IMG/VR virus record: IMGVR_UViG_2545824709_000014
Reading direction: 5' to 3' (one strand)
Length of the DNA stretch: 41,579 nt
Source: a virus
Lineage: Duplodnaviria; Heunggongvirae; Uroviricota; Caudoviricetes
Each line of letters begins with the position of its first letter. Within the stretch, counting starts at the first letter, position 1. The notes beneath the pieces are model-generated. The model had not been told where the DNA came from and did not search any database. It saw only the letters and a program-made list of their open reading frames with translations. A program made the translations under genes and the position numbers. This document shows, one piece after another, positions 9,034 to 41,579 of the stretch.

Positions 9034-10952
9034 TATGCAAGCTCCTCGATAATACAAATTCCAGCAGCACCTTTCCCGCCCGTCATATTAGTTCCGCTAT
9101 AACCGGCATCGTATGCACCACCGCCACCTGAACCATATGCCTTACCGCTAACACCACCGCCAGCGCCTGCGCGTCCACCGCCTCCCCAGTACGATGCACC
9201 GCCTTTACCGCTGACGCCGATATTCCCGGACTGACCGTCGCCTCCATCTCCACCAGTGATGCGGGTATCGCCAATATTCGGTACGCCTCCGTAACCACCG
9301 TTTGTGTTTGTGATTCCTGGTTTTCCGGCACCTTCACCTCCTGGAGCAATTAACGATGAGAACGAGCTATCACCTCCCTTGTAACCCACTGACGCACCGA
9401 CACCGCCTCCACCGCCTGCACCGATAACGACAGGATAACTATTCTCTGTCAGGGTCATTGTTGAAATAATTGTTCCACCTGCTCCACCGCCTGCACCAAA
9501 AAACGTTTCGTTACTGGATGCTGCTTTGCATCCGCCCCCTCCGCCACCGCCGCCCGTTATTGTGACCCTGATCCGTTTTGTTCCTGGTGTCGGGGTGTAC
9601 GTACCTGATGACGTGAAAACCCGGGTATTCACCAAGCGTCCCACGTATCCGTTTGTAGCTCCCAAACCAAGATAATGAATAACCTCCTGTTTGCTTGTTT
9701 TAGCCAGAATATCCCGTCCAACATTAGTCAGGGTTGTCAGGCTGGCTGTATCATTCCCCGTAAAATACGGTAGTTTGTCTGCCGCAGTGGCAAGGCCTGC
9801 CAGTGCGGTCAGTGTGGCGTCGGCAGGTTGTTTTCCATTGGCAAGGTCATATACAGCCTTCACGGCTTTTGGTGTGGCAGCCTGCGTTTCTGACGTGCTG
9901 TTAGTGGCGCTGCTGAGTTGCACGGTGCCTTTTACCGTCAGTGAAGCTGCAGGCACATCCGTTATCTGGCTCCATGGGTGCGTGTGACTGACAGGTGCCT
10001 TACCTGCTGCAAGGTCATATGCCGCCTTCACTGCCTTTGGAGTGGCAGCCTGCGTTTCTGACGTGCTGTTAGTGGCGCTGCTGAGTTGCACGGTGCCTTT
10101 TACCGTCAGTGAAGCTGCAGGCACATCCGTTATCTGATTCCACGGGTGTGTGTGACTGACAGGAGCCTTACCTGCTGCAAGGTCATATGCCGCCTTCACT
10201 GCCTTTGGAGTGGCAGCCTGCGTTTCTGATGTGCTGTTAGTGGCGCTGCTGAGTTGCACAGTGCCTTTTACCGTCAGCGAGGCTGCAGGTACACCTGTTA
10301 TCTGATTCCACGGGTGTGTGTGACTGGCGGATGCTTTACCTGCTGCAAGATCATATGCAGCCTTTACAGCCTTCGGTGTTGCGGCCAGTATTTCGGATTC
10401 ACTGTTGGTCGCACTGCTTAACTGAGTAAAACCTTTTGCGGTCAGCGAGGCGTCCGGGTGACGTCGTGACTGTTCGTGCTCTGATATTTTGTCATCCACA
10501 TACTTGCGGGTTGCCAGCACTACGGCAGGGTCAATTTTCAGGGTGATATTGTCCATACTGCTGGTAATCAGCACCATGCGCACGGTCTGGGTGCGCCCGC
10601 TGCCTTCAGCCAGTTGCGGCTTATAGCTTTCCGGGCAGTTGCCCACGGCAATTAGTGCCCCGGATTCATCAAACAGGCCCACTTCACGTATCCACCAACC
10701 GCCCTCGTTTTCAGGGATCACCTGTTCAGCAATAATCTGGCTGCTGTTTTGCGGGTCGATATAGAGCATATTCAGCGCAGCCCGGCGTTTCTCATTTACC
10801 AGTGCCGTCTGCTTTGCGTCCGGCGTTGGCAATACTCCGCCGCCATCGCCCACCGCCATATGGGTAATTTTTAGCGGCACACCGAGCGCGGCGGCGCTGG
10901 CAAGTTTCGCCGCGCCAATATCCGTCAGCAGGGTATAAAATTTTGTGCTCAT
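9033..10952 (-). CDS. H: Tail fiber protein H with internal 56-aa tandem repeats and a glycine-rich C-terminal module
   Basis: 639 aa; conserved N-terminus MSTKFYTLLTDIGAAKLA...; repeats of AATPKAVKAAYDLAAGKAPVSHTHPWNQITDVPAASLTVKGTVQLSSATNSTSETQ; C-terminus with poly-Gly motifs. Confidence 0.85.
   Translation of the reverse strand: MSTKFYTLLTDIGAAKLASAAALGVPLKITHMAVGDGGGVLPTPDAKQTALVNEKRRAALNMLYIDPQNSSQIIAEQVIPENEGGWWIREVGLFDESGALIAVGNCPESYKPQLAEGSGRTQTVRMVLITSSMDNITLKIDPAVVLATRKYVDDKISEHEQSRRHPDASLTAKGFTQLSSATNSESEILAATPKAVKAAYDLAAGKASASHTHPWNQITGVPAASLTVKGTVQLSSATNSTSETQAATPKAVKAAYDLAAGKAPVSHTHPWNQITDVPAASLTVKGTVQLSSATNSTSETQAATPKAVKAAYDLAAGKAPVSHTHPWSQITDVPAASLTVKGTVQLSSATNSTSETQAATPKAVKAVYDLANGKQPADATLTALAGLATAADKLPYFTGNDTASLTTLTNVGRDILAKTSKQEVIHYLGLGATNGYVGRLVNTRVFTSSGTYTPTPGTKRIRVTITGGGGGGGGCKAASSNETFFGAGGGAGGTIISTMTLTENSYPVVIGAGGGGGVGASVGYKGGDSSFSSLIAPGGEGAGKPGITNTNGGYGGVPNIGDTRITGGDGGDGQSGNIGVSGKGGASYWGGGGRAGAGGGVSGKAYGSGGGGAYDAGYSGTNMTGGKGAAGICIIEELA
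9830..10440. repeat. Tandem 168-bp repeats (about 3.6 copies) inside H
   Basis: Near-identical units starting at about 9830, 9998, 10166 and 10334; the two middle copies are almost identical. Confidence 0.8.
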
Positions 10953-19394: not shown

Positions 19395-21161
19395 ATGAAC
19401 ACCACACTGACACCCGCAGATCTCGATCCCCGTCGGCAGGCCATGCTGCTGTACTTTCAGGGATACCGCGTAGCCCGCATTGCTGAAATGCTGGGCGAGA
19501 AAGTTGCAACCGTTCACAGCTGGAAAAAACGCGACAAGTGGGGTGACTATGGGCCGCTGGATCAGATGCAGCTCACCACCGCCGCACGCTACTGCCAGCT
19601 CATCATGAAGGAGCACAAAGAAGGGAAAGATTTCAAAGAGATTGACCTGCTGGCGCGCCAGTCTGAGCGCCACGCGCGGATCGGCAAGTTTAACAATGGC
19701 GGCAACGAAGCCGACTTAAACCCTAACGTCGCCAACCGCAACAAAGGCCCGCGCCGTCAGCCGGAAAAGAATGTCTTCACCGATGAACAGATTGAGAAGC
19801 TGGAAGAAATCTTCCATTCCTCCATGTTCAACTACCAGCGCCACTGGTGGGAAGCCGGAAAAACCAACCGCATCCGCAACCTGCTGAAGTCACGCCAGAT
19901 CGGCGCGACCTTTTACTTTGCCCGTGAAGCCCTGATTGACGCCCTGCTTACCGGACGTAACCAGATTTTCCTTTCCGCCAGTAAAGCACAGGCCCACGTC
20001 TTTAAGCAGTACATCATCGACTTCGCCAAAGAAGTCGAGGTGGAGCTGAAAGGCGATCCGATGGTGCTTCCTAACGGGGCCACGCTTTACTTCCTCGGCA
20101 CCAATGCCCGCACGGCCCAGAGTTACCACGGCAACCTGTATCTGGATGAATATTTCTGGATACCGAAATTCCAGGAGCTGCGCAAAGTGGCTTCCGGTAT
20201 GGCTATTCACAAAAAATGGCGACAAACCTATTTTTCCACGCCATCCAGCCTGACACACAGTGCTTATCCGTTCTGGTCCGGTGCGCTGTTTAACCGTGGG
20301 CGCAACAAAGCCGATAAGGTGGACATCGACCTGTCCCACAACAATCTGGCCCCCGGCTTGCTTTGCGCAGACGGGCAATACCGCCAGATAGTCACCGTGG
20401 AAGATGCGGTGCGCGGCGGCTGTAACCTGTTCGACCTCGACCAGCTACGCATGGAGTACAGCCCGGACGAATATCAGAACCTGCTGATGTGCGAGTTCGT
20501 GGACGATCTCGCGTCCGTGTTTCCGCTCAGCGAGCTGCAGGCGTGCATGGTGGACAGTTGGGAAGTCTGGACCGACTTTCATGCACTGGCCCTGCGCCCG
20601 TTTGGCTGGCGCGAAGTGTGGATCGGTTATGACCCGGCAAAAGGTACACAGAACGGCGACAGTGCCGGATGCGTGGTGGTGGCTCCGCCAGCCGTGCCGG
20701 GCGGCAAGTTCCGCATTCTTGAGCGTCACCAGTGGCGCGGAATGGACTTTCGCGCCCAGGCTGACGCCATCAAAAAACTGACCGAACAGTATAACGTGAC
20801 CTATATCGGCATCGACTCGACCGGCGTCGGTCACGGGGTTTACGAGAACGTGAAAGCGTTTTTTCCTGCCGTCCGGGAGTTTGTCTACAACCCCAACGTT
20901 AAAAACGCCCTGGTACTCAAGGCCTACGACATTATCAGCCACCGCCGTCTGGAGTTTGACGCCGGGCACACCGACATTGCGCAGTCATTCATGGCAATCC
21001 GTCGCGCCACAACCGCCAGCGGCAACCGCCCGACCTATGAAGCCAGCCGCAGCGAAGAAGCCAGCCACGCCGATCTGGCCTGGGCAACGATGCACGCACT
21101 GTTTAACGAACCGCTGCAGGGCGAATCCGCCAATATCAGCAATATTGTGGAGATTTTTTGA
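19395..21161 (+). CDS. P: Terminase ATPase (large) subunit P
   Basis: 588 aa; divergent from O, overlaps the Q start; size as P2 gpP. Confidence 0.85.
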   Translation: MNTTLTPADLDPRRQAMLLYFQGYRVARIAEMLGEKVATVHSWKKRDKWGDYGPLDQMQLTTAARYCQLIMKEHKEGKDFKEIDLLARQSERHARIGKFNNGGNEADLNPNVANRNKGPRRQPEKNVFTDEQIEKLEEIFHSSMFNYQRHWWEAGKTNRIRNLLKSRQIGATFYFAREALIDALLTGRNQIFLSASKAQAHVFKQYIIDFAKEVEVELKGDPMVLPNGATLYFLGTNARTAQSYHGNLYLDEYFWIPKFQELRKVASGMAIHKKWRQTYFSTPSSLTHSAYPFWSGALFNRGRNKADKVDIDLSHNNLAPGLLCADGQYRQIVTVEDAVRGGCNLFDLDQLRMEYSPDEYQNLLMCEFVDDLASVFPLSELQACMVDSWEVWTDFHALALRPFGWREVWIGYDPAKGTQNGDSAGCVVVAPPAVPGGKFRILERHQWRGMDFRAQADAIKKLTEQYNVTYIGIDSTGVGHGVYENVKAFFPAVREFVYNPNVKNALVLKAYDIISHRRLEFDAGHTDIAQSFMAIRRATTASGNRPTYEASRSEEASHADLAWATMHALFNEPLQGESANISNIVEIF

Positions 21162-22248: not shown

Positions 22249-24456
22249 TTAAGTACGTAACATAATTTGCTGTTGAACTTGGATAGGCTGTAAGGTTTGA
22301 TATTTCTGCCTAATTAGGTTATATAAATCCGGCATTTCTTCAGCAGATAAAGTCACGACAAGAACATATGGTAGTTCTTCTAACTCGTCAACATCAATAG
22401 GCATACCACAGTCTCTACCATAGTAGATAATATCAAAGCATGGGTTTGTCAGCTCATTCGGTTTAAATTTGTGTTCACTTCTTAACGTAGTCTCCCATTT
22501 ATGTGCATCAACACGTTGCTCATTTTCATCTGCATAAACATTTTTTAGATTAAAAAGAGGAAACGTTAACCCGGAACTATCTGAAACACCTTTTCTCATG
22601 GTTACTTCTAGACCGCTTCTTGTATAATTCAAAGGATGTTCCGCATCTACAGGACTGGAAAAGCAGAATGTCGCTCTTAAATTTACACATCCACGCATAG
22701 GTACATCTGGAAACGGAATAGGTGCTCGCATGTGTTGTGATGGTTTTAAAGTACCTTGATATATAACTTTAACTTCATCATCATCACAAAATATTACTTC
22801 ACTAAGATCATGAGGAAATCGTCCCCAACCAACTTCAGCACGATTGATATTATTGCTCTCCGCATGATGTATAAGCAGAGCTTTAGCCGTAAGTGGTGTA
22901 ATGTTGTAATTTAGAGAAGCACTTAACGCGATTGCTTGCCTCAGGACTAATGGAGCTGAAAAGCTAGTCCCCGCAGTGCGGGCAAGACCATTAACCATAG
23001 GGCTGTATACCTGGAATGGCTCATCAGAATGTCCTCCAAATGCAACTCCATCAGGCTTCACAAAGCCAGGGCTTCGTCCAGGACCAATACAACTGTAAGA
23101 ACATCTTTCCCAACTATCAGATAAAGAGGTTGCTGCACCTACTGACAGACCATTAACTAAATCAGCAGGTGGTTGAATTCGATTTAACTTGGCAGGCAGC
23201 TGACCATCATTTCCAACCGCGACAGTACAAAGTGTTTCTCCTGATGCAAGTATCTCCTCAAGAGTTGAGGTCCACACATGCACGTCATCGTCATCAACAG
23301 GTAATCTAGGTCCTAAGCTCAGATTGATATAATCATATTTTTTTTGTTCTAATACACTTTTAATACGGATCAGAACGTCAAAAAGATCGACATCTGAGTT
23401 ATTAACATTGGAATCCAGTACACGATAATGGTCAATATTACAATAAGGAACACTTAATTTTTCCGTTTCAGAGCCAAGAACACCAAATAACACAGTAGAG
23501 GTGACATCCTGTCCATGAGAAAGAAGTTTTGCATTAGTACTAGCATTACCGTTGAAAGTGTACTCTGTTACCCAAGGATTGAAATCATCGATCCCCAATC
23601 CACCATCGAATATGGCAACCTTTATATGTGGGTTTACCGCTCCTTCAGATGGTAAACTAAGGTTAGATGTTTGAATCACAGAACGTGATATAACAGGCTC
23701 ACTTAGCCTTAATTCAGGAAGTTCTCTCAAAGTCCTGAGAAATGAAAACTCTGCAACTTTTAAAGCTACATCTTTACTAGCCTTAATAGGCATAAAGGTT
23801 AGCCCCTTAACCTTTATACTTCTTGCCTTATCTATAACAGCACCATTTTGCGAAGCAAAAACTTCAAAACTATCGACAATAGAGGAACTTGTATCAGGAG
23901 TATGTAAGGCGACCTCAATACTCATAACTTCATTGCTATTAATCGTTTTTACTTTATCTGAAACTTCCAGTATTGAAATATTTTCTAAGGTGACAAAATC
24001 ATTTTGCTGCCCTTTCGTTAGGGTATCTTGATTTACAGAGTCTAAGAATGATTGAAAACTTTCTTTTTTGCCAGAAACATAAATACACGCTGTAGTGTAT
24101 TCCTCTTTTCGCCCTCTTTTTTTAATATCTTTTCTAGGTTTTACTTTTACAGCCTTACTGCCTATGCTTTCTAGGGAAAATCGCTCAAAAAGACTTACTG
24201 GAAAATAACTTTTTGCTAAGAATGCCGGATGCAAAACAAATTTTGCTACAGCCTTACCTTCAGGCATTGCTAACAATGGAAGGGTATTAATTTCCTCAAT
24301 CAACTCTTCCAGTTGAGCAGATATCACTGGTTTATTTTCTGAATAAGAGTAAGGTTTATTCTTTTCACCTCCACCTCTGTTAAGTTTAACAGGGTTAGTT
24401 AGTGTTTCACCATAGCCAAGAAGCATATTTTTATCATTCATTGTCTTCATCCTCAA
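22249..24456 (-). CDS. Subtilisin-like (S8) serine peptidase with long N-terminal extension; candidate IetS-like defence protease
   Basis: 735 aa; S8 triad motifs VAIFDGGLG (Asp), SHGQDVTS (His), GTSFSAPLV (Ser); AT-rich; coupled to the upstream ATPase gene. Confidence 0.7.
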   Translation of the reverse strand: MRMKTMNDKNMLLGYGETLTNPVKLNRGGGEKNKPYSYSENKPVISAQLEELIEEINTLPLLAMPEGKAVAKFVLHPAFLAKSYFPVSLFERFSLESIGSKAVKVKPRKDIKKRGRKEEYTTACIYVSGKKESFQSFLDSVNQDTLTKGQQNDFVTLENISILEVSDKVKTINSNEVMSIEVALHTPDTSSSIVDSFEVFASQNGAVIDKARSIKVKGLTFMPIKASKDVALKVAEFSFLRTLRELPELRLSEPVISRSVIQTSNLSLPSEGAVNPHIKVAIFDGGLGIDDFNPWVTEYTFNGNASTNAKLLSHGQDVTSTVLFGVLGSETEKLSVPYCNIDHYRVLDSNVNNSDVDLFDVLIRIKSVLEQKKYDYINLSLGPRLPVDDDDVHVWTSTLEEILASGETLCTVAVGNDGQLPAKLNRIQPPADLVNGLSVGAATSLSDSWERCSYSCIGPGRSPGFVKPDGVAFGGHSDEPFQVYSPMVNGLARTAGTSFSAPLVLRQAIALSASLNYNITPLTAKALLIHHAESNNINRAEVGWGRFPHDLSEVIFCDDDEVKVIYQGTLKPSQHMRAPIPFPDVPMRGCVNLRATFCFSSPVDAEHPLNYTRSGLEVTMRKGVSDSSGLTFPLFNLKNVYADENEQRVDAHKWETTLRSEHKFKPNELTNPCFDIIYYGRDCGMPIDVDELEELPYVLVVTLSAEEMPDLYNLIRQKYQTLQPIQVQQQIMLRT

Positions 24457-25516
24457 CCGTCAAAACCTTACGTACTTGTGACCTTGAAATCCCCAAATCT
24501 AAAGCGATTTTTCTTTGTGATACATTGTTGTTTGACATGTTTTTTATAACATCATCAAGTGACACGCCATCTAACAACTCATCAATTAAAGCTGAACTTA
24601 AAGGAATATCTTCTATAATGGCATTTCTTTTAGCTTGATTTATAGCTCTCTCAAGAACTGCATATGAAACTTTTTCGAGTTTTGTAGCAATATAGTACGA
24701 TAAGCTATCTCCAATATTTTTAGAACAGAGATATCTTCTCATTAGGTCTTGTGTTGGATATTCAAAATCAATAACTCGATCGAATCTTCTCCATGCAGCA
24801 GGATCAAGCAGCTCCGCATGGTTAGTTGCTGCTATAAGAACAGACGTATTTGGCCATTCATCAATTGCTTGCAATAATACTGTAACTAATCTTTTTAGTT
24901 CTCCAACATCTGTTGCATCATCCCTTTTTTTAGCAATCGCATCAAATTCGTCAAGAAGCAGTACACAAGGGAATGACGAAGCATAATTGAGGACTGCCTT
25001 AATATTATTACCCGTTTTCCCCAAGTAGCTACTCATTACACTTGCGAGATCTAATGTTAACAATGGCATATCGAGTTTAAAAGCGAGCCACTTTGCAGCC
25101 AAAGTCTTCCCCACACCGGGTGGTCCTCCCATAAGAAGAGATTTGGACGGATGCAACCCTTCTTTATAAAGGCGTTCTTTCATTTCCCACTCAGCCACAA
25201 ATCGATTCAGTTGAACATCAGTTTTTGTTGGCCAAACAGGTTCAACATCAATGACCACAGGATATGTTTCAACTAGCAGCTTTTGTCTTGTATCCGCATC
25301 AACAGGTGTTATTTTAGGAACAACTGGATTAGCCCTTTCGACTGCAATTGCGCCACCTGTATTAATAAGTAAATCTTCTAATTTACCCGCTAATTCAGGA
25401 GATTCTTTTTTTAGTTTTTTTGCCATAATCCGCAACCGCATGAGGAGACTTTCCCTCTTCCCGGTAAGAGCATCACTGACAACATCAATGAGCATTTCGT
25501 TTGTAACGTTTATCAT
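24434..25516 (-). CDS. AAA+ ATPase with C-terminal HTH-like tail; candidate IetA-like defence ATPase
   Basis: 360 aa; Walker A GGPPGVGKT, Walker B VLLLDEFD; C-terminal QRKIALDLGISRSQVRKVL; AAGGGTGG SD upstream. Confidence 0.7.
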   Translation of the reverse strand: MINVTNEMLIDVVSDALTGKRESLLMRLRIMAKKLKKESPELAGKLEDLLINTGGAIAVERANPVVPKITPVDADTRQKLLVETYPVVIDVEPVWPTKTDVQLNRFVAEWEMKERLYKEGLHPSKSLLMGGPPGVGKTLAAKWLAFKLDMPLLTLDLASVMSSYLGKTGNNIKAVLNYASSFPCVLLLDEFDAIAKKRDDATDVGELKRLVTVLLQAIDEWPNTSVLIAATNHAELLDPAAWRRFDRVIDFEYPTQDLMRRYLCSKNIGDSLSYYIATKLEKVSYAVLERAINQAKRNAIIEDIPLSSALIDELLDGVSLDDVIKNMSNNNVSQRKIALDLGISRSQVRKVLTVEDEDNE

Positions 25517-26515: not shown

Positions 26516-28930
26516 TTAATACAGATCCCGCCACTTATCATCTTCCTGCAAACGCTGGTTCCGATAGAAGATACGCAGGCCTGCTCCTGACGGAATACTG
26601 CCGCCGCGAAGGAGTAAATCGACCTCTTTCTCGCTACCATCAAATCCTCTGGACTTCAGCTCATAGACGAGCTGCTGTCGCTGATGGTCTGTAATTCGCT
26701 GTTTGTAGTCTTTACGACGTTTCGGTTTCACCAGGCGTAACCTTGCAGCCAGTTCCCGGCGCTCTTTTTTGCTCATACTGTGCAGGTAATCGTGCAACTC
26801 CTTGTCATCCATGCGGGTAATGTCCGTTCTGGTATCCCCATCAGCTGATTTGTCTTTCCCTTGTTGGTTCAAATTTTCAGCAAGGGGACAGTTATTGCCA
26901 CGAGTCCAAGGGGCGCAAGCGCCCTGGTCGGCTGCCGCCTCCTGAACGTCAACGGCTTTACGAACCATTTTCCACTTCACTGCATGAGTGCAGATCTTGC
27001 CCTCTGCAATGGGTGACCAGATGCCATAAATACGAATACCGTGATCGCCATAGGCGGTCGGCTCTTCGTTGATTTCATAAGCGGTTCTGATGAGGTGATA
27101 TTTACGGGGAACCAGTACGCCGCCCTGCTTCATGATGTAGGTAGCAAAACAACCAGCATCAGCAGCAGCCAGAATGGCATCAAGACGCGGGTTATCCAGT
27201 ACTGGCGCACCTGCTTTTTTGTCACCCTGTTGCCTTGCCACCTGACCAGCCAGCAAGCGAAGTTCACGGTAAGCCTGACGTCCCGGAATACCAAAGAAGC
27301 GGAATTGCTGTACACGATGCAGAGACGCCCAGGCATTAACGTATTCAGCGTTATCACACAAGGATTTACCCGTTTCCTTACTGATCTCGCCAGCCAGACC
27401 ACGCCCGTCAATGTTCTTACTGATGTATTTCGCGATGTAGCTTGTCGGCGTTCCTTTGCGCGGGTTTATCAGCTCAGACTTAAAGCGTGGCTCCGTGTTA
27501 TTGCCCAGCTCCTCGCGGTCTTCACGGATGGCAAACTTACGCAGTAATGCAGTGATGGCGCGGCGGTCTTTTTTGCGCATGAAACACAATAGGTGCCAGT
27601 GAACGGTGCCGTCATGATGAGGCTCAGCCACCCGCACGCCATACCAGCGCAACCCGGCTTTATGCATAGCCTTACGAAATGCAGCAAACATGCCGACCAG
27701 ATAATCGCTGCTTTGTCTTACCGTCGCATTTGTCCAGGTCGGGTTGGGCCTGCCGTTATTTAGCGTGGAATGGAAACGTGACGGACAGGTGATGGTGTAG
27801 AAAACGGCGCAGTCACCGCGCATTTCCGCGATAAGCTCCAGACCTTTAACACAGGCCATCATCTCATTGCGGCGATGCGCAGGATTGCTGCTGCTGGCGT
27901 TTACCACATCCTCCATGTCCAGCGTGTCGCCGTCTTCGTTCACCAGTTCATGAGAACGGAAAAACTCTAGTGACTTGCGGCGCTGCTCACGTTTATGCAT
28001 CACGGCTTCATAGCTAACATAGGGAGATGCTTTTTTGCTGACCAGGCAGACAGCACGCAACTGCTCTTCCCGCCATTCGCAACGCATCTTCCATAATTTC
28101 CGATACCACCAGTCGGCGCACAACATACGCGCCAGCGAACCCGGAATGAGTTCATAGGGCACGGGTTTGCGGCGGTTTCTTTTCCGACGAAGTTGCTCAA
28201 ACGCAGGCGGTATGACATCCAGTCGCAGGGTTTCCGCTGCTACCTTTTCCCATGTCTTGCGGATTTCTTCTGGCTTAACATCATCGGTGGCATACAAATC
28301 GCCACAAGCTGCATCAAGGCACATGCTCATATGCGCAGCTACCAGGGTGGACAGGCGTTTTACCTGATCCTGACTCATTTCAGGCAGAATCAGCAGGCCG
28401 TCCAGCCCTTCATGGCTTGCCATAAAGCGAAAAGAAGTGGATAGCTGACTGTCGCGTACATGCTCCAGCCGTTCCAGACATGGCTTAATCGTCTTACGCA
28501 AATAGCGGGAATAAGCCTTTGGCCTGCCCAGGCTGCTGAAGTATTCAATACGTTGCATCAGCGGCTTGCTGATATGGGAAGGCTGGGCGTTAACGTCCGC
28601 CAGAATGACCATGTCTGGATTAAAACGCTGCTGCTCATGCGCCAGCTTTGCCCGGCTAATGAGCTTATCCTGCTCCATTTCGCGTTGGACAGGATCACGG
28701 GATTCATTAAAGAAATAACGCTCCCAGACCTGATCACTCAGTGCCTCGCGGCGCAGCTGTTCCTGCTCGTTATCGGTAGCGTACAGAGTGATCAGGTTTG
28801 AAAGCGCAGAAACCGGCGCAACTTCCGCCGGGTCCAGATAAGGGTTAATAACCTTTTTCGGGCTGTTCCATGAGAATGCTGCGGCGACCTCGTTAACGCC
28901 GCTGCAATTGTTCATATCGGCATGACTCAT
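26516..28930 (-). CDS. A: Replication initiation (rolling-circle nicking) protein A
   Basis: 804 aa; [12 protein letters not shown] active-site tyrosine motif typical of the P2 gpA family. Confidence 0.8.
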
Positions 28931-32359: not shown

Positions 32360-33373
32360 ATGACCATCAGAAAACAGCCGAACGGAAAATGGTTGTGTGA
32401 GTGCTATCCCAATGGACGCAATGGCAAGCGCGTGCGTAAGCAATTTGCTACGAAAGGCGAAGCCATTGCGTTTGAAAGCTTCACAATGGAAGAAGTGAAT
32501 AAAAAACCGTGGTTGGGTGAAAAGGATGATCGGCGACGCCTATCAGAATTAATTGAGCTTTGGTATTCCCTGTATGGTCAAACACTCGCAGACCCCAAGC
32601 GCCTCATGGCGAAACTTAGAATTATCTGTAATGGTCTAGGCGATCCCATCGCCTCAGAACTGACAGCTGGTGACTTTACAAAATACCGCGAAGCACGGTT
32701 AAAAGGTGAAATACGAAATGAAGATGGCACGCTTATGTCGCCCGTAAAGCCCCGCACGGTAAACCTTGAACAGCGCAATCTATCATCTGTGTTCGGTACA
32801 TTAAAAAAACTAGGACACTGGTCAGCACCAAACCCGCTGGCAGGACTTCCGACCTTCAAAATTGCCGAAGGTGAGCTGGCTTTTCTTTCCACGGACGAAA
32901 TCAAGCGCCTGTTGGCGGCATGTGCTGAATCTCAAAACCCTAGCTTACTAATGATTGCAAAAATATGCCTAGCTACTGGCGCACGGTGGAGTGAAGCCGA
33001 AAATCTGCAGGGCCACCAAATATCGAAATACCGAATTACTTATACAAAAACAAAAGGCAAGAAAAACAGAACAGTACCCATATCACAGGAGCTGTATGAC
33101 GAACTCCCAAAGAACAGAGGGAAGTTATTCTCACCATGTAGAAAAGCCTTTGAACGAGCAGTAAAACGGGCAGGTATAGATCTACCGGATGGCCAATGCA
33201 CCCACGTGCTGCGACATACGTTTGCTAGCCACTTTATGATGAATGGCGGGAACATACTTGTGCTAAGGGATATTTTGGGACATTCGGATATCAAGATGAC
33301 CATGGTTTACTCACATTTCTCACCAGATCATCTTGAAGATGCCGTTACTAAGAACCCATTAAACTTGATATAA
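32360..33373 (+). CDS. int: Tyrosine integrase (P2/186 family)
   Basis: 337 aa; C-terminal HVLRHTFASHFMMNGG...LGHSDIKMTMVYSHF with catalytic R, H-x-x-R and Y. Confidence 0.85.
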   Translation: MTIRKQPNGKWLCECYPNGRNGKRVRKQFATKGEAIAFESFTMEEVNKKPWLGEKDDRRRLSELIELWYSLYGQTLADPKRLMAKLRIICNGLGDPIASELTAGDFTKYREARLKGEIRNEDGTLMSPVKPRTVNLEQRNLSSVFGTLKKLGHWSAPNPLAGLPTFKIAEGELAFLSTDEIKRLLAACAESQNPSLLMIAKICLATGARWSEAENLQGHQISKYRITYTKTKGKKNRTVPISQELYDELPKNRGKLFSPCRKAFERAVKRAGIDLPDGQCTHVLRHTFASHFMMNGGNILVLRDILGHSDIKMTMVYSHFSPDHLEDAVTKNPLNLI

Positions 33374-33386
33374 AACAGCCAAAATT

Positions 33387-35144
33387 CTATTTCATCAAGT
33401 AATCCAATTCATCCTTCATAGGTATAACTTGCTCATAAAGTCTATGGTAGGATTTTCCAATTGCACCCCTAAATTGAATAAGTTTAGGGGAAAAGCTACC
33501 GATATTAATAATATGTTCTTGCGCTATACCAGGATATGGATCGATAAAAATAATCTCTGTCATACCTAACTGATAAGCTTTTTTAGCACAAAGTTCACAA
33601 GGGCTAGCTGTAGTATATAGTTTCCCTCCATTAATACCGACCCCACCATATTTGGCCAATTGCAAAAAAGCATTCTCCTCTGCGTGCAATGCACGGGTAT
33701 GCACTTGATTCCCTTTCTTTTCATCATCAAGGCTGTTGTGAATATCTTTAAAACAATATGGCAAATTAAGTCCTTTAAAAACAGTAGAACTTGAATCACT
33801 CGCCCTTATTTTTATTAAATTTTCTTTAACTTTACTCCTAAATTTTGTATTACTTCGTTCGTACAGGCTATATGTTCCCTCATCAAAATCATGCAATAAC
33901 CCATCAAATGACCTCATAGAACAAGGAACTTGACCTTTTGCTACATCGTTCCAACCAACTGACTTGATAGAGTTATCATTATCTGTCACAACCGCCCCTA
34001 CTTGCCTAGATATACATCCAGAATTTAGTTTTACAGTATATGCAACTTGCATAACCCTTTCCATGGCGGTAGGAGATATTAATCCAGGGTGTTGCATTAA
34101 TGATACATACCACGCAATTTGTGCTTTGAGAAAATTATTATTATCAAATTCTTTTTTAGGGTTAAAAAAATGTATATCTGAAATTTCAATGCATTTTTTT
34201 ACATTAGGATTAGTAAGATGATTATACTCGCCATCTCCTTTACCAGATTCTTCATCATTAATTTTTTTTATCTGTTCCTCTGAGAACTTATGTAATTTCT
34301 TTAAATATCTGGTTCGATGTTCATCTGGTGCATTTATAGAAACCAGATGGAATGCAGCATATCTATCTTTGAAGAATTTAGCTTCATACGGGTTACGTAT
34401 CGCATCAATGACTATATACGCTTTATTATTCTTTACTTTTCTAATTATTTTAATAACACGATTAATTGTTTCAGGTAAATGAAAAACAGCCTTTGGAATA
34501 AAGTCTTGATTTTCATAATCTACATCAACCTTCCCTATTCTTCTAATTGACTTTCCTGCTGACTGATATAGCTCAATATATAAACCTGGCTCTAGTTCAT
34601 TTAATTCCCTTTTAAAATCCCGTGTAAATTTTCGAGTAAGAGTTAATATCCTAATAAAGGTATCTTTCCCCCTGCCTTTAAAGTCAATCTCATCATCATG
34701 ATTAAGAAGATTTTTTATCACCTCAAGATATTTTATCTTCAACAAACTTTTAGCGAACACACCATTAACAACCAGTTTCTTGGCTGCCTTAAAGGAAATC
34801 GAATTTTCTTTTTTATCGGGGATTTTACTTGCAGAAAACTGAATGAATTTAGCTAAGGCCGATGGAGATAAAAGGAGCAAATATATTGAAATGAGATCAC
34901 TGACCTTTATCGAATAGAAGTTCTTCCAATGAGTCTCTGCAAAATTTTTTACTATTTCATAACGCCGCAAATCCAATCCTTTATAATACTCAGCCAAGAC
35001 GTTACTATCTGGAAAAGATATTTCTTTTTGTTCTAAAATATTTGCTGCAGTAGTACATCCTGAGCCAGTTCTCCCAGTTAAACCAATAAGAATAAATTGA
35101 CTATTTTCTAAAAAAAGCTCACTAATAAATTTGTGTTCTCTCAT
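33387..35144 (-). CDS. P-loop kinase-like domain fused to CMP/dCMP-type deaminase domain; candidate AvcD / defensive dCTP deaminase
   Basis: 585 aa; N-terminal P-loop GLTGRTGSGCTT; C-terminal zinc-deaminase signature HAEENA...SPCELC; AT-rich; lies between int and attR. Confidence 0.65.
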   Translation of the reverse strand: MREHKFISELFLENSQFILIGLTGRTGSGCTTAANILEQKEISFPDSNVLAEYYKGLDLRRYEIVKNFAETHWKNFYSIKVSDLISIYLLLLSPSALAKFIQFSASKIPDKKENSISFKAAKKLVVNGVFAKSLLKIKYLEVIKNLLNHDDEIDFKGRGKDTFIRILTLTRKFTRDFKRELNELEPGLYIELYQSAGKSIRRIGKVDVDYENQDFIPKAVFHLPETINRVIKIIRKVKNNKAYIVIDAIRNPYEAKFFKDRYAAFHLVSINAPDEHRTRYLKKLHKFSEEQIKKINDEESGKGDGEYNHLTNPNVKKCIEISDIHFFNPKKEFDNNNFLKAQIAWYVSLMQHPGLISPTAMERVMQVAYTVKLNSGCISRQVGAVVTDNDNSIKSVGWNDVAKGQVPCSMRSFDGLLHDFDEGTYSLYERSNTKFRSKVKENLIKIRASDSSSTVFKGLNLPYCFKDIHNSLDDEKKGNQVHTRALHAEENAFLQLAKYGGVGINGGKLYTTASPCELCAKKAYQLGMTEIIFIDPYPGIAQEHIINIGSFSPKLIQFRGAIGKSYHRLYEQVIPMKDELDYLMK

Positions 35145-35366: not shown

Positions 35367-35411
35367 ATGTAGGAATTTCGGACGCGGGTTCAACTCCCGC
35401 CAGCTCCACCA
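35367..35411. repeat. att core, right copy (duplicated 3' end of ssrA)
   Basis: 45 bp identical to 358-402; followed by its own hairpin and T-run, then a P4-type integrase. Confidence 0.85.
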
Positions 35412-35576
35412 CTTTTTAGTTGTTTGAAGTTCAATGAAGTCTACTAAGCCCACACAGCACAAGCTCTGCGGGCTTTTTTACGTCTATTGTCGTCCAGTGA
35501 GAATTGCTGAGAACTACGAGTTATGGCACCCTGAATGGGACCCATTAAGAAGGGTCCAAAAACCGAGGGTCCCAAA

Positions 35577-36806
35577 ATGGCAAAAATCGCTAAGAAGCTC
35601 ACTGACACTGAAATCAAAAGCACCAAGCCAGCCGATAAAGAAATCAACTTGTTTGACGGTGATGGTCTGATTCTACGAATCGCTCCTTTGGCGAAAGGAG
35701 GCAAGAAAAATTGGTATTTCAGGTATGCAGTACCAGTGAGCAAGAAAAGAACCAAAATGAGCCTTGGGACATATCCTCACCTTACCCTTGCAAGAGCCAG
35801 AGCCTTACGTGATGAATATCTCTCCTTTCTGGCAAATGGTGTTGATCCCCAAATCCATAACAACGATAAGGCGAAGGCATTAAAGAGTGCTACTGAGCAC
35901 ACTCTCCAAGCCGTAGCGCGGAAATGGTTAGATGAGAAGGTAAAGACATCAGGTATCTCACAAGACCATGCAGCAGACATCTGGCGCAGCTTAGAGAGAA
36001 ATGTCTTTCCCGGTCTGGGTAATGTCCCTATCAATGAGATCCGACCTAAGCTCTTAAAACAACACCTTGATCCTATTGAGCAACGAGGCGTATTGGAAAC
36101 TCTACGCCGTATCATTTCACGTCTGAATGAAATCTTCCGGTGGGCAGCTACTGAAGAACTTATTGAGTTCAACCCGGCTGACAACCTTGGTCAAAGATTC
36201 AGTAAACCAAAAAAGCAAAATATGCCTGCCCTTCCCCCAAGCGAATTGCCAAGGTTTATGGAATCTTTGACGAATGCGTCAATCCGGTTGGAAACACGTA
36301 TGCTAATTGAATGGCAATTGTTGACATGGGTTCGTCCGGGTGAAGCCGTTCGCGCAAGGTGGTCTGATATTGATACAACCAACAGCATTTGGAACATTCC
36401 TGCTGATTTCATGAAAATGAAAAAGCTTCACAAAGTTCCTTTGAGTAAAGAAGCTTTGCGCATCCTTGAATTAATGAAATCAATAAGTGGGCATAGAGAA
36501 TGGGTTTTCCCCAGCATAAAAGCGCCTCTTAATCATATGCATGAACAAACAGCCAACGCAGCTATCATCCGAATGGGGTTCGGAGGCGAGCTTGTAGCTC
36601 ACGGTATGCGTTCTATTGCACGAACAGCGGCAGAGGAGTCTGGTAAATTCAGAGCTGAAGTTCTTGAGGCAGCGCTTGCCCACTCGAAAAAAGATGAAAT
36701 TATCGCAGCATACAATCGTGCAGAATATCTGATAGAGCGACAGAGTTTGATGCAATGGTGGAGTGATTACGTTCAAGCTCAAAGATCAAATGCTCTGGTA
36801 GCCTAA
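35577..36806 (+). CDS. Tyrosine integrase, P4 family
   Basis: Start placed at MAKIAKKLTDTEIKSTKPADKE (GAGG 8 nt upstream), a typical P4-Int N-terminal arm-binding region; C-terminal HGMRSIARTAA...AYNRAEYLIERQSLMQWWSDY; ORF track start is 35535. Confidence 0.85.
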   Translation: MAKIAKKLTDTEIKSTKPADKEINLFDGDGLILRIAPLAKGGKKNWYFRYAVPVSKKRTKMSLGTYPHLTLARARALRDEYLSFLANGVDPQIHNNDKAKALKSATEHTLQAVARKWLDEKVKTSGISQDHAADIWRSLERNVFPGLGNVPINEIRPKLLKQHLDPIEQRGVLETLRRIISRLNEIFRWAATEELIEFNPADNLGQRFSKPKKQNMPALPPSELPRFMESLTNASIRLETRMLIEWQLLTWVRPGEAVRARWSDIDTTNSIWNIPADFMKMKKLHKVPLSKEALRILELMKSISGHREWVFPSIKAPLNHMHEQTANAAIIRMGFGGELVAHGMRSIARTAAEESGKFRAEVLEAALAHSKKDEIIAAYNRAEYLIERQSLMQWWSDYVQAQRSNALVA

Positions 36807-36844
36807 GTATCAGAATAGCTAATATAATCCTGAAGGTAAAGAAA

Positions 36845-37261
36845 ATGGAAACCCTATTCAAAGTTTTTGAAAAATTTAGTTCCAGACCACTTTTTTTTAT
36901 TTTTTTCGGACTCTCACTTTGTGAATTTTTTCAGAAACAATCTGTTCTGATGAATCCATCAGCAGATAACATCGCGAAATTATTCGCAGCCATGATATTA
37001 GTTGTTTTTTTTACTTGGGGATTTGAATGGCTAATCTTCAAGTTCAATGTAAACCTTGAACCTCATGATCAAGGCGATATTGGACCAACAATTGGAACGG
37101 CTACTTTAGCTGTATACTTAGTTTATGCCTTTCACTTTCTCAGTGAAAATCCTGAAGCATTAAATTTAAAGTTATTAACTAACTCTGGCTTTATATACAG
37201 CACAACTCTATTATTATTCTCATTAGAATGCATGAAGCTTAGAAGACTTAAACAAAAATAA
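36845..37261 (+). CDS. Small hypothetical membrane protein (about four predicted TM helices)
   Basis: 138 aa; AT-rich; hydrophobic segments LFFIFFGLSL, AAMILVVFFTWGFEWLIF, IGTATLAVYLVYAF, IYSTTLLLFSL. Confidence 0.5.
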   Translation: METLFKVFEKFSSRPLFFIFFGLSLCEFFQKQSVLMNPSADNIAKLFAAMILVVFFTWGFEWLIFKFNVNLEPHDQGDIGPTIGTATLAVYLVYAFHFLSENPEALNLKLLTNSGFIYSTTLLLFSLECMKLRRLKQK

Positions 37262-37291
37262 ACAACATCATTGTGATGATAAATATAAAAT

Positions 37292-37320
37292 AGGCATGGC
37301 GAAAAAAAATCACCACGCCT
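37292..37320. terminator. Hairpin between the convergent 4-TM gene and the receiver-domain gene
   Basis: AGGCATGG ... CCACGCCT imperfect inverted repeat around an A-rich loop. Confidence 0.3.
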
Positions 37321-37332
37321 AAAATATAATAA

Positions 37333-39099
37333 TTATGGTAGCATCATTGATACATAATCCACACCAATCCTTGAGCTATACTGAGACGCTATAGCCTGAT
37401 ATCTTTCTGCATAACCAGTTCTCAGTTGAGATTTAAGTTTGAGTCGGACAGGAACATTTTGCACGTTGCCATCCATATTACTTAAAAACACGGCAGAAAT
37501 AATATTTTTTTCTTCGCCATCAACTGTTGTTCCATGATTCAACACCACCATATAATCAACAACAGGAAGCGTTTTATCCCCTTCGAAAATAGAGAGATAT
37601 TTTCTTTGATTTTTATGCATTACATATATATATTTCGAATGTTCAGCAAATGGCAATGCTTTACTCTGACTGGCGTTAAAAAGCTCCAGAACTTTAATGA
37701 GCCTGTGCGGACTTAATCTTACATGGTGAGGGTCGTTACCCTGAGTAGGAACCAAATCACATGCCGCAGATACACATAAATACCATTTGTTCGACTCTGT
37801 ATCAAAGAAAATAGTGCCAGTAGAAATATGACCATCTTCAAAATTCTTTGAAGACAAATTCATATTTAAAGCATGATACATTTCGTGATAAGTATCATTA
37901 TTTGATGGCAGATCCATTTTTGAAGAGCAATATTGGAGCAATGCAGCAACTCCGCTGTTAGCGTATTCATTTGAATAGCTATCAAAAACACTTTTGATAA
38001 ATTCATCCAGCGTATTATTATTTTTAAGTCTTTGATAAAGCTCTTCTGATAAATTACCAAATACAAAGTCAATATTTCTACATCTAATATCAGGCGAGTC
38101 TGATTTTAATATCTCATTTAACCACGCAGCTTGACCGTAATGATCGTTAGCCAAATGATTTACAAAAGATAAAACCTCAGCTTCGATTGCATTCTGAATT
38201 TCAGATTTTATTAACTGATAATAAGATGGTTTCCATTCAATGAGAGAATCATTGAGAGTTTGCCAAATCCTATCTCCATCGTTTTCATGATCATCTTGAA
38301 CCTTATGAAATAGGGAGACAAAGATATTACCACATTGAATCCATTTTACTCCGCTTTCATCACCCCGAATGACATTGCCAGATGTGTTGCTAGAAATAAT
38401 TGCATTTCTAGACACAGCATATTCTGCAATCATTTTTGCAATGAAGTTTTTATCCTTTTGATCCTCCAACACAGCATCATCATGTATTAATCTTTTAATT
38501 CTTCTACAAGGCTTACTGTCTTTAATATAGGCTATTGTTTCATCTCTTGTGAGAGCTTTATTACCATTATCATTTAAGTTCGGTAATACAACGTCTTCCC
38601 AATAACTTTGGACATCTTCATTATCGTAGTCAATGATCAAGCTGTTGATATCCAGAGCACCTTTGAGAGTCGATGATATCTGCATCCAAACCGTTTCTAA
38701 ATTCTCTCTAGTATATATTACAATCATATTTAAATGATCGGAGTCTTTCAAATCTTGTAATAGTTTAAGTGTTTTATCAGGTGCATTATTATCAAGATGA
38801 TAATCTACAATAATAAGATCTGATTTTCTAATCCGATCCACATCGAAATTAACAGAACCATTGTCAACATCACAAATCATATTTTTAGATTGAAAAAAGC
38901 TCTCAAGAGTAGCGGCTCGTTTAGATGAGTCAATTTTGTTGTAGTCTAAATCAACTTCGTTATTCAACGCCCTGATTGATTCAGAATACGTCAGAAAATC
39001 GTCATCAATCATGACAACGGAACGAATTGCATTTTCGCAGAAAGTTTTCTGGACAAGAGAATTATAATTTGCCACTGTCATATTAGAACTCCACTCCAT
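37333..39099 (-). CDS. Receiver (REC)-like N-terminal domain fused to a ~450-aa domain of unknown function
   Basis: 588 aa; VVMIDDD acidic pocket, LIIVDYHLD candidate phospho-acceptor Asp, MIVIYT; start overlaps the upstream kinase-like gene by 17 nt; AT-rich. Confidence 0.6.
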   Translation of the reverse strand: MEWSSNMTVANYNSLVQKTFCENAIRSVVMIDDDFLTYSESIRALNNEVDLDYNKIDSSKRAATLESFFQSKNMICDVDNGSVNFDVDRIRKSDLIIVDYHLDNNAPDKTLKLLQDLKDSDHLNMIVIYTRENLETVWMQISSTLKGALDINSLIIDYDNEDVQSYWEDVVLPNLNDNGNKALTRDETIAYIKDSKPCRRIKRLIHDDAVLEDQKDKNFIAKMIAEYAVSRNAIISSNTSGNVIRGDESGVKWIQCGNIFVSLFHKVQDDHENDGDRIWQTLNDSLIEWKPSYYQLIKSEIQNAIEAEVLSFVNHLANDHYGQAAWLNEILKSDSPDIRCRNIDFVFGNLSEELYQRLKNNNTLDEFIKSVFDSYSNEYANSGVAALLQYCSSKMDLPSNNDTYHEMYHALNMNLSSKNFEDGHISTGTIFFDTESNKWYLCVSAACDLVPTQGNDPHHVRLSPHRLIKVLELFNASQSKALPFAEHSKYIYVMHKNQRKYLSIFEGDKTLPVVDYMVVLNHGTTVDGEEKNIISAVFLSNMDGNVQNVPVRLKLKSQLRTGYAERYQAIASQYSSRIGVDYVSMMLP

Positions 39100-40801
39100 T
39101 GAACTGGATCACAAAATTAGCGCCATCTTTTATTAAATAGTTATCGCCTTCATCAGGTTCTGAATACCATATTTTATGATGTGCAACAGCAAGGTTTTCT
39201 CGACATAGATACAGACCTACCCCATGTCCATTTGCTCTTTTGCTATAAAATAGTTCAAATAGTCGCGGGATATCATCGGTATCAATTGCCGGACCAGAAT
39301 TTGCTATGATAACCAAAGAATTCACAAAACCAATCTTTATGAGCCTATTATTTGACAGACTGACCCAATACATTGCATTGTTGATAATATTAGTAAAAAC
39401 AGGATAGATCCTTGATGGTATATCTGTTATTGCGATTTGCTTAAACTCTTCACTAAATTCAATAGTTATTCGTTGCCGTTCGAAACGCTCCCCAAAGAAC
39501 TTCAGGACATAATCCATGATATTTTTTCCAGTTATTCTCTGCCTGGATTGATAACCTGATATTTTCAAAGGTGATAAGAAACGTATTTGTTGAGTAAGCG
39601 ATCTGTGAGCATTTAACGCCAATGAAAAACCAGGGTGTTCTTTTACAGAAGTAGGAAGAGAGTTTAGTCCTCTGGTTACCATAGAATCCATTTCTTCAAG
39701 TTCATGAGATATTATCTCAACACTAATACCTAACTGTGCAAGCGCGTTTAAACTTTTAGCTTTTTCTTCAAAATATGAGCGTTCTTCTTCAGATAATGAG
39801 AATGCTGAATCTAAGTTTATACCTTCAAATAATCTATCGAGACCTTTTATTATTGATTGATATTTGAAAGTTAGGGTATCAACTGACTCAACATATAAAC
39901 TATCGAGCAAATTAAACACATTTTCAATTTGTGAATCATTATCTATTGAATCAACAACTGATATAGTTTTAGCATAATAATCACTTCGATCAACCTTTAT
40001 TTCATCGGCCCATTTTTTTAAAAGAGAATGTATCTTCTCCTCTATCGTGTTATTAAACTTAGTTAGTTTAGAATTAATAATACCTTGATTTTTTTCAAGG
40101 TGATTTTTCGCTGACAATGAAGGCTCAAGTTTATTTAATTCAGAATCAAGTTTATTAATTGCTAACTTCATTTGTAGAATATACGCAGAGAACTCATTAA
40201 ATTTATCTCTGTAGTCTCTATATTTCTCTTCATACATTCCAAGTTTTGGAGGTTTGATAGGCGTTTTAATTTCACTGCGCAACGCATCTAAGTTTGTAAG
40301 ATCACTGTCTATAATTTTAAGATAGTTTAAATCTAACGAACCATCAGTTTTATCAAGCTTAGTTTTCAGCCTTTTAACAGCCTCCAAGGAAGCATCAAGA
40401 ACTGGTGTCTGATTCTTCAAAGCTTCTGAAAAACTTTTTTGTGTTGATTTTCGAGCTTGTTGTTGAGCAGATTTTCTTAACTCTTTTTCACGCTTAACTT
40501 GTTCTAAAAGCTCTTTACGGTCATCAGAACGTGAACCAAAAAATCTATCAGCAAGTTCAGTTAACAAATTAGATATAATAGTTTTCAGTTCTCTTGCAGC
40601 CTGGTTTCTTATGAATCCCTCTCTCCCCGACTTATCTTTCAGCTCTTTATTACTGGATTGAGTAATTCCAATATAACCAAAAATCCTTCTATTAGACCAA
40701 TAATATCGCCCTGCATTCCATGAACGTCTTTCTTCTATCTGGAAGAAATCATTATCTACTCGACCATAAGGTAATACTCTCAAGCTATCCCTAAAAATCA
40801 T
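39083..40801 (-). CDS. Histidine-kinase-like protein (coiled-coil N-terminus, H-box, C-terminal GHKL ATPase); possibly 5'-truncated
   Basis: 572 aa; H-box-like ISHELEEMD; N-box FTNIINNAMYW; G-box-like ANSGPAID and GHGVGLYL; reading frame stays open upstream of the first ATG into the IS3 end. Confidence 0.6.
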   Translation of the reverse strand: MIFRDSLRVLPYGRVDNDFFQIEERRSWNAGRYYWSNRRIFGYIGITQSSNKELKDKSGREGFIRNQAARELKTIISNLLTELADRFFGSRSDDRKELLEQVKREKELRKSAQQQARKSTQKSFSEALKNQTPVLDASLEAVKRLKTKLDKTDGSLDLNYLKIIDSDLTNLDALRSEIKTPIKPPKLGMYEEKYRDYRDKFNEFSAYILQMKLAINKLDSELNKLEPSLSAKNHLEKNQGIINSKLTKFNNTIEEKIHSLLKKWADEIKVDRSDYYAKTISVVDSIDNDSQIENVFNLLDSLYVESVDTLTFKYQSIIKGLDRLFEGINLDSAFSLSEEERSYFEEKAKSLNALAQLGISVEIISHELEEMDSMVTRGLNSLPTSVKEHPGFSLALNAHRSLTQQIRFLSPLKISGYQSRQRITGKNIMDYVLKFFGERFERQRITIEFSEEFKQIAITDIPSRIYPVFTNIINNAMYWVSLSNNRLIKIGFVNSLVIIANSGPAIDTDDIPRLFELFYSKRANGHGVGLYLCRENLAVAHHKIWYSEPDEGDNYLIKDGANFVIQFNGVEF

Positions 40802-40922
40802 TAGTCCTGCATACTTTTTGGCCTTAAGATCAAAGTGGGAATGTTCACGTTCAGTATGTGATGTATTTTGTGAAAGGAATTCAAACGTTCCTATCTGAAG
40901 CTCAAATGGGCCGACCCCTGCG

Positions 40923-41579
40923 TGATCCTACCCACGTAATATGGACACAGGCCTAAGCGAGGTTCTTGTTTTCAAATTGTTCCGGACTGAGGCCGCCACA
41001 CCAACTGTGCCGCCGCCACCGATTGTAATCACATTCGATATAATTAAACACCGTTGCCCGCATTATTTCCCGGCTGATAAAGTGTTCTCCATGGATACAT
41101 TCCACTTTCAGCGAATGAAAGAAGCTTTCCACGCAGGCATTATCGTAGCAGCAACCTTTTGCGCTCATACTTCCACGCAGATTATGCCGCTTCAGTTGCG
41201 CCTGATAATCTGCTGAACAGTACTGGCCTCCACGGTCCGTGTGAACGATAACGTTCCGGGGCCTCGTACGCCGCCACAGCGCCATCTGCAGGGCATCGCA
41301 GGCCAGTTGCGCCGTCATGCGTGGCGACATTGACCAGCCAATAACGGCACGTGACCACAGGTCAATGACCACTGCCAGATACAGCCAGCCTTCATCTGTA
41401 CGTAAGTACGTGATGTCTCCTGCCCACTTCTGGTTCGGGCCACTGGCGTAAAAATCCTGCTCCAACAGATTTTCTGATACAGGCAGGCCGTGTGCGCGGT
41501 AGCTGACCGGGCTGAACTTCCGGGAGGCCTTTGCCCTCAGTCCCTGACGGCGCAGGCTTGCCGCCACGGTTTTTACGTT
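40923..41579 (-). mobile_element. IS3, right end (partial, continues beyond the window)
   Basis: Terminal inverted repeat TGATCCTACCCACGTAATATGGACAC...; encodes the IS3 orfB transposase. Confidence 0.8.
40953..41579 (-). CDS. insF: IS3 transposase OrfB (InsF), partial
   Basis: ...[22 protein letters not shown]...[11 protein letters not shown]...[22 protein letters not shown] matches IS3 InsF as I recall it; DDE motif region present. Confidence 0.8.

Follow-up and report, generated by a model that had tools for sequence, protein, structure and literature searches.

The 572-aa open reading frame (ORF) annotated as an 'ATP-binding protein' at 39083-40801 (minus strand) is very probably the 3' remnant of a 988-codon gene, left behind when the methylase/kinase-like/receiver operon of an ssrA-associated island was cut by an IS3-associated deletion. 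All coordinates refer to the window, i.e. the whole 41,579-nt stretch of DNA analysed here. The deletion joined the right end of IS3 to codon 376 of the kinase-like gene and its left end to about nt 1145 of ygaQ. As the truncation of a gene at an IS element, the feature represents an ordinary form of gene decay.

A protein search with the frame extended upstream of the annotated start (613 aa) found 988-991-aa proteins of Salmonella, Klebsiella and Serratia with 99% identity over 100% of the query. The whole 613-residue frame can be aligned gaplessly with P0003, a 988-aa protein, over its residues 376-988 (99% identity), and the same applies to a dozen similar proteins. In the pairwise alignment, query residue 2 corresponds to P0003 residue 377 and the annotated start methionine to Met417; the 572-aa ORF represents residues 417-988 of the intact protein (99% identity to P0003). 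The preliminary description of this locus had proposed aligning uninterrupted homologs to look for an N-terminal extension, and these homologs (988-999 aa) do reach 416 residues further towards the N-terminus. At the DNA level, positions 35367-40923 of the window are 98.97% identical to an intact Salmonella island and the match stops at the IS3 terminus, with an ambiguity of 1 nt. The break lies at codon 376 of the intact homologs, and the 3' 60% of the 988-codon gene (the last 612 codons) survives.

The intact protein consists of HATPase_c_3 (residues 28-137), a long helical region, HEF_HK (772-830) and HATPase_c (878-969). In the window, the 572-aa ORF (39083-40801, minus strand) retains a coiled-coil region which precedes the HEF_HK phospho-acceptor domain (PF19191, about 39560-39736, minus strand; 26.1 bits with a cut-off of 24.1, residues 356-414, ..ISHELEE..) and the HATPase_c catalytic domain (PF02518, about 39143-39418, minus strand; 44.9 bits, residues 462-553). 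The remnant thus carries the conserved His-Glu of HEF_HK followed by a C-terminal HATPase_c. No HATPase_c_3 was found in the window ORF, since the gene is cut at codon 376, whereas the 99%-identical P0003 has this domain at residues 28-137. In P0003, residues 13-138 give a match to the N-terminal part of NCBIfam NF050001 (BbrUII/HgiDII-type restriction enzymes; E=1.5e-13) and to PF13589. An N-terminal 'sensor' domain and the native promoter had been proposed to be removed by the insertion. The loss itself is borne out by the 988-999-aa homologs, but what was lost is another ATPase module of the GHKL type (HATPase_c_3, paraMORC-like, residues 28-137) with about 240 further residues and not a classical sensor. 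The predicted model of the full-length protein, which is of low confidence (pLDDT 60.6), gives a weak hint that residues about 309-462 may form one beta-rich domain spanning the breakpoint, with Met417 in a beta-strand and half of the domain deleted.

GHKL (paraMORC) modules have been described in restriction enzymes of the BbrUII/HgiDII family and in restriction-modification operons (Iyer, Abhiman & Aravind 2008, PMC2292703). The intact homolog resembles these enzymes in its N-terminal module and in the linked Dcm-type methylase. However, the match is only partial (50 bits with a cut-off of 550), and outside the module the protein differs from BbrUII/HgiDII in having a coiled coil and a histidine-kinase core in place of a nuclease. 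The BbrUII/HgiDII-like GHKL module is exactly the part which is deleted in the window.

The reading frame of the remnant stays open upstream of its ATG at 40801 and runs into the IS3 end, as was described previously. The minus-strand translation of this region is ...G*DHAGVGPFELQIGTFEFLSQNTSHTEREHSHFDLKAKKYAGLM..., and the peptide DHAGVGPFELQIGTFEFLSQNTSHTEREHSHFDLKAKKYAGL, which directly precedes the M of the 572-aa ORF, agrees exactly with the one reported before. The ATG is preceded by 42 sense codons (40802-40927) and the frame is closed by a TAG at 40928-40930, within the IS3 inverted repeat; the non-IS3 share of the open stretch amounts to 40 complete codons (40802-40921) and one base. 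No in-frame ATG, GTG or TTG occurs in the open stretch, so that 40801 is the first possible start. The remaining two frames of the stretch contain 6 stops and 1 stop, and the probability of finding 41 stop-free codons by chance is ~0.03 at the base composition of the gene (34% G+C). By itself, the open frame is only suggestive evidence for a coding origin. The evidence that we take to be decisive is that the 40 native residues agree with residues 377-416 of the intact homologs at every position. In an alignment of 15 full-length homologs with identities down to 61%, these upstream 40 residues fall into the conserved columns GVGxF, GTFE and KAxKYAGL. The spacer of 121 nt from IS3 to the ATG (40802-40922, minus strand) corresponds to the last base of codon 376 and codons 377-416, in frame and with no start codon, and the stretch is open because it is original coding sequence that was orphaned by the break.

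The terminus of IS3, TGATCCTACCCACG, has its first base at 40923, which places it at a distance of 122 nt from the start codon of the ORF (A at 40801), and the sequence read in the window from 40923 on, TGATCCTACCCACGTAATATGG, is that of the IS3 terminus. The right-hand 657 nt of the element (40923-41579, minus strand) are contained in the window, comprising the IRR terminus and orfB, and the end of the window cuts the element. This end is the right one (IRR) because orfB, coding for a transposase with rve domains (rve, rve_2 and rve_3), occupies 40953-41567 of the minus strand and continues past the end of the window. Both the terminus and the minus-strand orfB confirm the position given for the right inverted repeat in the preliminary description. 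IS3 is transcribed in the same sense as the kinase-like ORF. In the related E. coli genome L001, which is identical to the window in the junction region over the 240 nt tested and 99.8% identical over 6.2 kb, the element (TGATCC...GGGTAAGATCA) is 1258 nt long, and this length and both terminal inverted repeats (TGATCCTACCC... and ...GGGTAAGATCA) are those of IS3. The element in related E. coli loci is labelled 'IS3-like element IS3 family transposase' in RefSeq; the transposase entry (orfA/orfB DDE transposase) carries the remark 'programmed frameshift', and orfA lies beyond the edge of the window. The internal TAG of the IS3 transposase pseudogene of L001 (L001 7050-7060) is absent from the window copy (41315-41330), and the IS3 of another related locus, L002, has an intact frameshift-type transposase. 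IS3 at the kinase junction is therefore itself polymorphic among the carriers.

The organization of the intact operon can be seen in Salmonella and Klebsiella. In four Salmonella loci, a gene for a 395-402-aa Dcm-type C5 methylase is located upstream and overlaps the start of the kinase gene by 20 nt; in the Klebsiella locus, the methylase gene also lies directly before the kinase gene. Because the methylase and kinase genes overlap, the native promoter must, judging from this arrangement, have been located upstream of the methylase gene. The kinase gene is followed in Salmonella by a gene for a 582-aa Response_reg_2 protein (1 nt later), a 138-aa hypothetical gene, a P4-type integrase gene and ssrA, and the island directly adjoins ssrA there.

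In the window, the intact receiver partner gene (582 aa; 37333-39081, minus strand) begins 1 nt after the kinase stop and encodes an N-terminal Response_reg_2 domain with the conserved acidic pocket. The C-terminal ~400 aa of the receiver protein (37333-38540) gave a confident model with helical and beta-rich parts. This output region, a candidate effector domain, has no Pfam, NCBIfam or PDB match and contains the invariant residues W247, N252, K260, H403/N406, C436, C441-D442, R554, R571 and D575. A 453-aa receiver cluster (P0128, 1,605 members), considered as a common truncation, proved to be a bin of contig-end partial sequences. The 138-aa hypothetical gene (36845-37261, plus strand), for which no family match was found in the domain-profile and PADLOC scans, is found at the corresponding place in Salmonella and Klebsiella and travels with the island. 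The gene of the P4-type tyrosine integrase (35535-36806, plus strand; 409 aa by the RefSeq start; Arm-DNA-bind_3, Phage_int_M and Phage_integrase domains) is collinear with the Salmonella island. The proximal island border is a 45-nt attachment-site repeat (35367-35411, plus strand), which is an exact copy of the 3' end (358-402) of the tmRNA gene ssrA (40-402). Thus, the integrase gene, the 138-aa gene, the receiver gene and the last 612 kinase codons are kept in the window, and the first 375 kinase codons, the methylase gene and at least 11 kb more of island DNA (with a relaxase and tyrosine recombinases in Salmonella) are missing. Upstream of the kinase remnant, the window has IS3 and no C5 methylase gene.

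The other side of IS3 was inspected in E. coli genomes with a junction identical over the 240 nt tested. The far flank consists of ygaQ without its 5' part (an alpha-amylase-like pseudogene) and then glaH-lhgO-gabD, and the breakpoint lies at about nt 1145 of the 2253-nt K-12 ygaQ. No 3-bp target duplication was detected in L001, where the 3-nt flanks are GCG and AGA. The check for this duplication at the other IS3 end, which had been suggested earlier, therefore speaks against the simple insertion that was assumed then; the event was an IS3-associated deletion with which the upstream C5-methylase gene went as well. The missing duplication is a sign of rearrangement at an IS3 copy and no argument against the identity of the element. 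The DNA coding for the methylase and the N-terminal part of the kinase gave no megablast match in 5,426 complete E. coli genomes. The two flanks of IS3 were never contiguous, and their junction bears the mark of IS-mediated adjacent deletion, for which we infer intramolecular transposition of IS3, or else of recombination between two IS3 copies. Further losses in this event would be the promoter of the operon, 11 kb or more of island DNA, and chromosomal DNA up to the middle of ygaQ, including ileY if the ancestor was K-12-like. If the intact operon acts as a restriction-modification system, a cell could survive the loss of the methylase only when the restriction-like arm was knocked out at the same time, which the truncation would do. 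The remnant was found in 560 of the 5,426 complete E. coli genomes, always on the chromosome and with at least 99% identity, and the IS3-kinase junction is intact in 483 genomes. One ancestral deletion which was later inherited is the simplest reading of this distribution.

The right end of IS3 is known as a mobile promoter with the outward promoter P3R (PMC8860574, PMC12095673). Two motif pairs in the window face the remnant: TTTAAT-15-TACAAT (41048-41022, minus strand) exactly matches the published IS3 right-end motif and TTGGTG...CAATTT (41004-40974, minus strand) exactly matches P3R. In a consensus scan of both strands, neither the 121-nt spacer nor the IS3 terminus up to orfB contained a sigma-70-like site, and orfB itself gave only two chance-level sites; the published IS3 promoter motifs are too weak for such a scan to pick up. 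No terminator was found by scanning 40600-41579. The window locus shares the right end, its orientation to the downstream ORF and both unchanged motif pairs with the described mobile promoter. In contrast to the reported cases, the downstream ORF is only putatively IS3-driven here. The wild-type right end of IS3 showed weak reporter activity, which was damped about 1.9-fold by a pause/termination site in the last 50 nt (PMC12095673). As for translation, an AGGA is located 3 nt before the ATG (GCAGGACTAATG). The motif had been noticed before and is real, but it had been placed 5-8 nt upstream, and the actual spacing of only 3 nt makes it a poor Shine-Dalgarno arrangement. If the remnant is still transcribed at all, this would be by read-through from IS3 or from the outward promoters, and translation would start from this poorly placed Shine-Dalgarno sequence. 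Weak IS3-driven expression of the kinase core is possible.

The truncated kinase core together with the intact receiver most likely represents a young, decaying and non-functional relic, as far as can be judged from the sequences. Several observations count against this, among them the following: both the kinase and the receiver ORFs are intact and carry no pseudogene flag in five of the six E. coli loci inspected, and the remnant retains the phospho-acceptor His box and the catalytic domain. They are in favour of an alternative, which we consider unlikely, that the kinase core and the receiver are expressed from P3R and kept by selection as a pair which, with the kinase lacking the paraMORC module, would serve in signalling or defence in an unregulated or re-purposed form. 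This alternative also agrees with the IS3 outward motifs facing the ORF with no terminator found by the scan between them, and with the preservation of the pair in 560 genomes, including lineages without IS3. However, all the copies are at least 99% identical and their youth alone can explain the retention. The dN/dS estimates against Salmonella are below 1 and do not point plainly to neutrality, but they are based on only 9 substitutions in the kinase remnant (5 non-synonymous and 4 synonymous, ratio 0.34) and only 10 in the receiver gene (3 non-synonymous and 7 synonymous, ratio 0.11), which is far too few for a decision. In addition, the start codon would lie inside a predicted beta-strand (low-confidence model) of a half-deleted domain, with a Shine-Dalgarno spacing of 3 nt, the wild-type IS3 right end is weak and further damped by its last 50 nt, the IS3-less strains have lost the source of the promoter, and the remnant has been broken further in at least one genome. 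A shade less likely still is the stronger version, according to which the IS3-promoter-driven kinase core and the receiver would together make up a module for signalling or defence that is independent of methylation and kept by selection in about 10% of E. coli genomes.

PADLOC-DB v2 gave no system match for the remnant or for the full-length P0003 and only a chance-level hit for the receiver protein (E=0.0028). In the literature searched, no experimental or biochemical study of any member of the HEF_HK/Response_reg_2 family was found beyond the description from 2021. The intact relatives in other Enterobacterales, with a methylase, a paraMORC-kinase and a receiver-effector, are candidates for a restriction or defence system. 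Returning to the remnant as a probable relic of the deletion, its structure in E. coli would show which part of such a system can go together with the methylase without killing the host.

IS3 itself is absent in about 75 of the 560 carriers (about 13%). When an evenly spaced sample of 60 of the 560 remnant records was sorted into junction classes, IS3 was present in 51, the remnant was joined directly to ygaQ' without IS3 in 8, and one record showed a larger loss. In strain C3 (L013), which has a larger loss, the remnant is broken into two pseudogene pieces. The IS3-less strains are mostly STEC/O111, several of them being O111 or otherwise bovine isolates. Three IS3-less loci, those of E. coli B1_2 (L009, about 3495-3510), 95JB1 (L010, about 3495-3510) and EL361 (L011, about 3490-3500), have three different junctions. 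Without regard to the order of the strains, these read GCG-TGATC-TCTAAGG, GCG-CGC-ATCTCTAAGG and GACCCCTG-AATGGG. Each of them misses a few flank bases which are kept by the IS3-bearing allele and which are native to the kinase gene (as in Salmonella) or to ygaQ (as in K-12), and one junction retains 2-5 nt of the IS3 terminus, TG(ATC). Because of these missing flank bases and the IS3 end nucleotides kept, the IS3-less junctions are independent imprecise excisions and the IS3-bearing form is ancestral.

The existence of about 75 genomes in which the remnant is joined to ygaQ' without IS3 could also suggest that the kinase-ygaQ junction arose by another route and that IS3 was inserted there later. 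This is very improbable, however, since the 3-bp duplication that IS3 would have created on arriving later is missing, and since the three differing IS3-less junctions, with native flank bases missing and TG(ATC) kept in one of them, have the character of derived excision scars. The 560 genomes offer a natural series in which an IS3-associated deletion was followed by independent excisions, at least three, which left differing scars.

A process of this kind has been described for IS3 as the insertion-deletion-excision (IDE) model (Kanai et al. 2022, PMC8860574), in which the IS-excision enhancer of EHEC promotes the excision. As in this model, IS3 lies without a duplication between non-contiguous DNA segments, and its later loss left scars with short or no homology. 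The E. coli locus illustrates a process shown so far by experiment; in contrast to the published work, the window locus is a natural population snapshot and not an experiment. A further difference from the IDE model is that the joined genes are divergent pseudogene fragments, and therefore no operon was formed.

The idea of a simple IS3 insertion, with the N-terminal half of the gene and the methylase gene lying just past IS3, draws on the fact that the window stops inside IS3 and the far side is invisible there. It is even less probable than a later insertion. The far side is ygaQ' and then glaH in the E. coli genomes with the identical junction (240 nt tested), the 3-bp duplication is absent, and the missing DNA has no megablast match in the 5,426 complete E. 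coli genomes; the idea is refuted for the 483 genomes which share the junction.

Least probable of all, and refuted by the homolog comparison, is a native start at the ATG at 40801 with IS3 having merely landed upstream and replaced the promoter, as the preliminary description offered by way of alternative: the AGGA just upstream of the ATG and the 572-aa calls of RefSeq in E. coli and of annotations in five other genera would fit it, but the upstream 40 codons match residues 377-416 of the 988-aa homologs residue for residue, the methionine lies in a strongly conserved block and is replaced by leucine in some homologs, and the inspected Salmonella and Klebsiella calls are artefacts. The block in question is GL[M/L]xFRDxLRVLPYGRVDNDFF, with leucine in the Acinetobacter homologs. 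The ATG at 40801 therefore encodes the internal Met417, a structural residue, and is not a native start.

The other 572-aa proteins are annotated in Salmonella, Klebsiella, Yersinia, Morganella and Pectobacterium. In Salmonella Bareilly (L007 3984-6983), an uninterrupted 999-codon ORF is annotated as 572 aa, which leaves a 1.25-kb 'gap' after the methylase gene. In Klebsiella pneumoniae (L014 1725-4719), there is a frameshift near codon 310 and proteins of 314 aa and 572 aa are annotated, the latter being the piece behind the frameshift, called from the first ATG there. Both inspected calls outside E. coli are artefacts and not a natural short form. Met417 recurs as a 'start' because no in-frame ATG, GTG or TTG occurs for about 115 codons upstream. 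The 572-aa 'ATP-binding protein', which is annotated as intact in thousands of E. coli assemblies, is a gene fragment, and this abundant truncated protein may seed wrong start calls elsewhere.

The HEF_HK/Response_reg_2 family was defined bioinformatically in 2021 and linked to C5 methylases and paraMORC ATPases (Bellieny-Rabelo, Pretorius & Moleleki, PMC8011034). The window genes share PF19191, PF02518 and PF19192 with this family, in which the kinase-like gene is also a direct neighbour of the receiver gene. In the published classification, 'group 1' has HATPase_c_3 and 'group 2' (HEF_HK and HATPase_c), with 34 of the 222 sequences, is without it (PMC8011034). The intact relatives of the window gene, with the upstream C5 methylase and the N-terminal HATPase_c_3, belong to 'group 1'. 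The window copy would be scored as 'group 2', but it is a product of truncation at IS3 and not an evolved short form. The 572-aa start calls may contribute to the short architecture of 'group 2' and may inflate this group as published (PMC8011034).

A second mobile element is found at ssrA. A P2-like prophage lies at 403-35366, between ssrA and the island repeat, and codes for the tape measure (3255-6332), sheath (7341-8513) and tail fibre proteins (9033-10952), terminase (19395-21161), a gpA-like nickase (26516-28930) and integrase (32360-33373). Since the prophage is bounded by the 45-nt att repeats at 358-402 and 35367-35411, two mobile elements are present in tandem at ssrA. The cargo hotspots of the prophage contain two catalogued defence systems, both on the minus strand. 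The first one (22249-25516) consists of IetA (24434-25516) and IetS (22249-24456), and the second one (33387-35144) is a 585-aa dCTP-deaminase-type protein (PADLOC dCTPase, E=2e-146). Within the tail-fibre gene, three tandem copies with a period of 168 nt were observed at 9841-10418, which are 84-100% identical over 242 nt.
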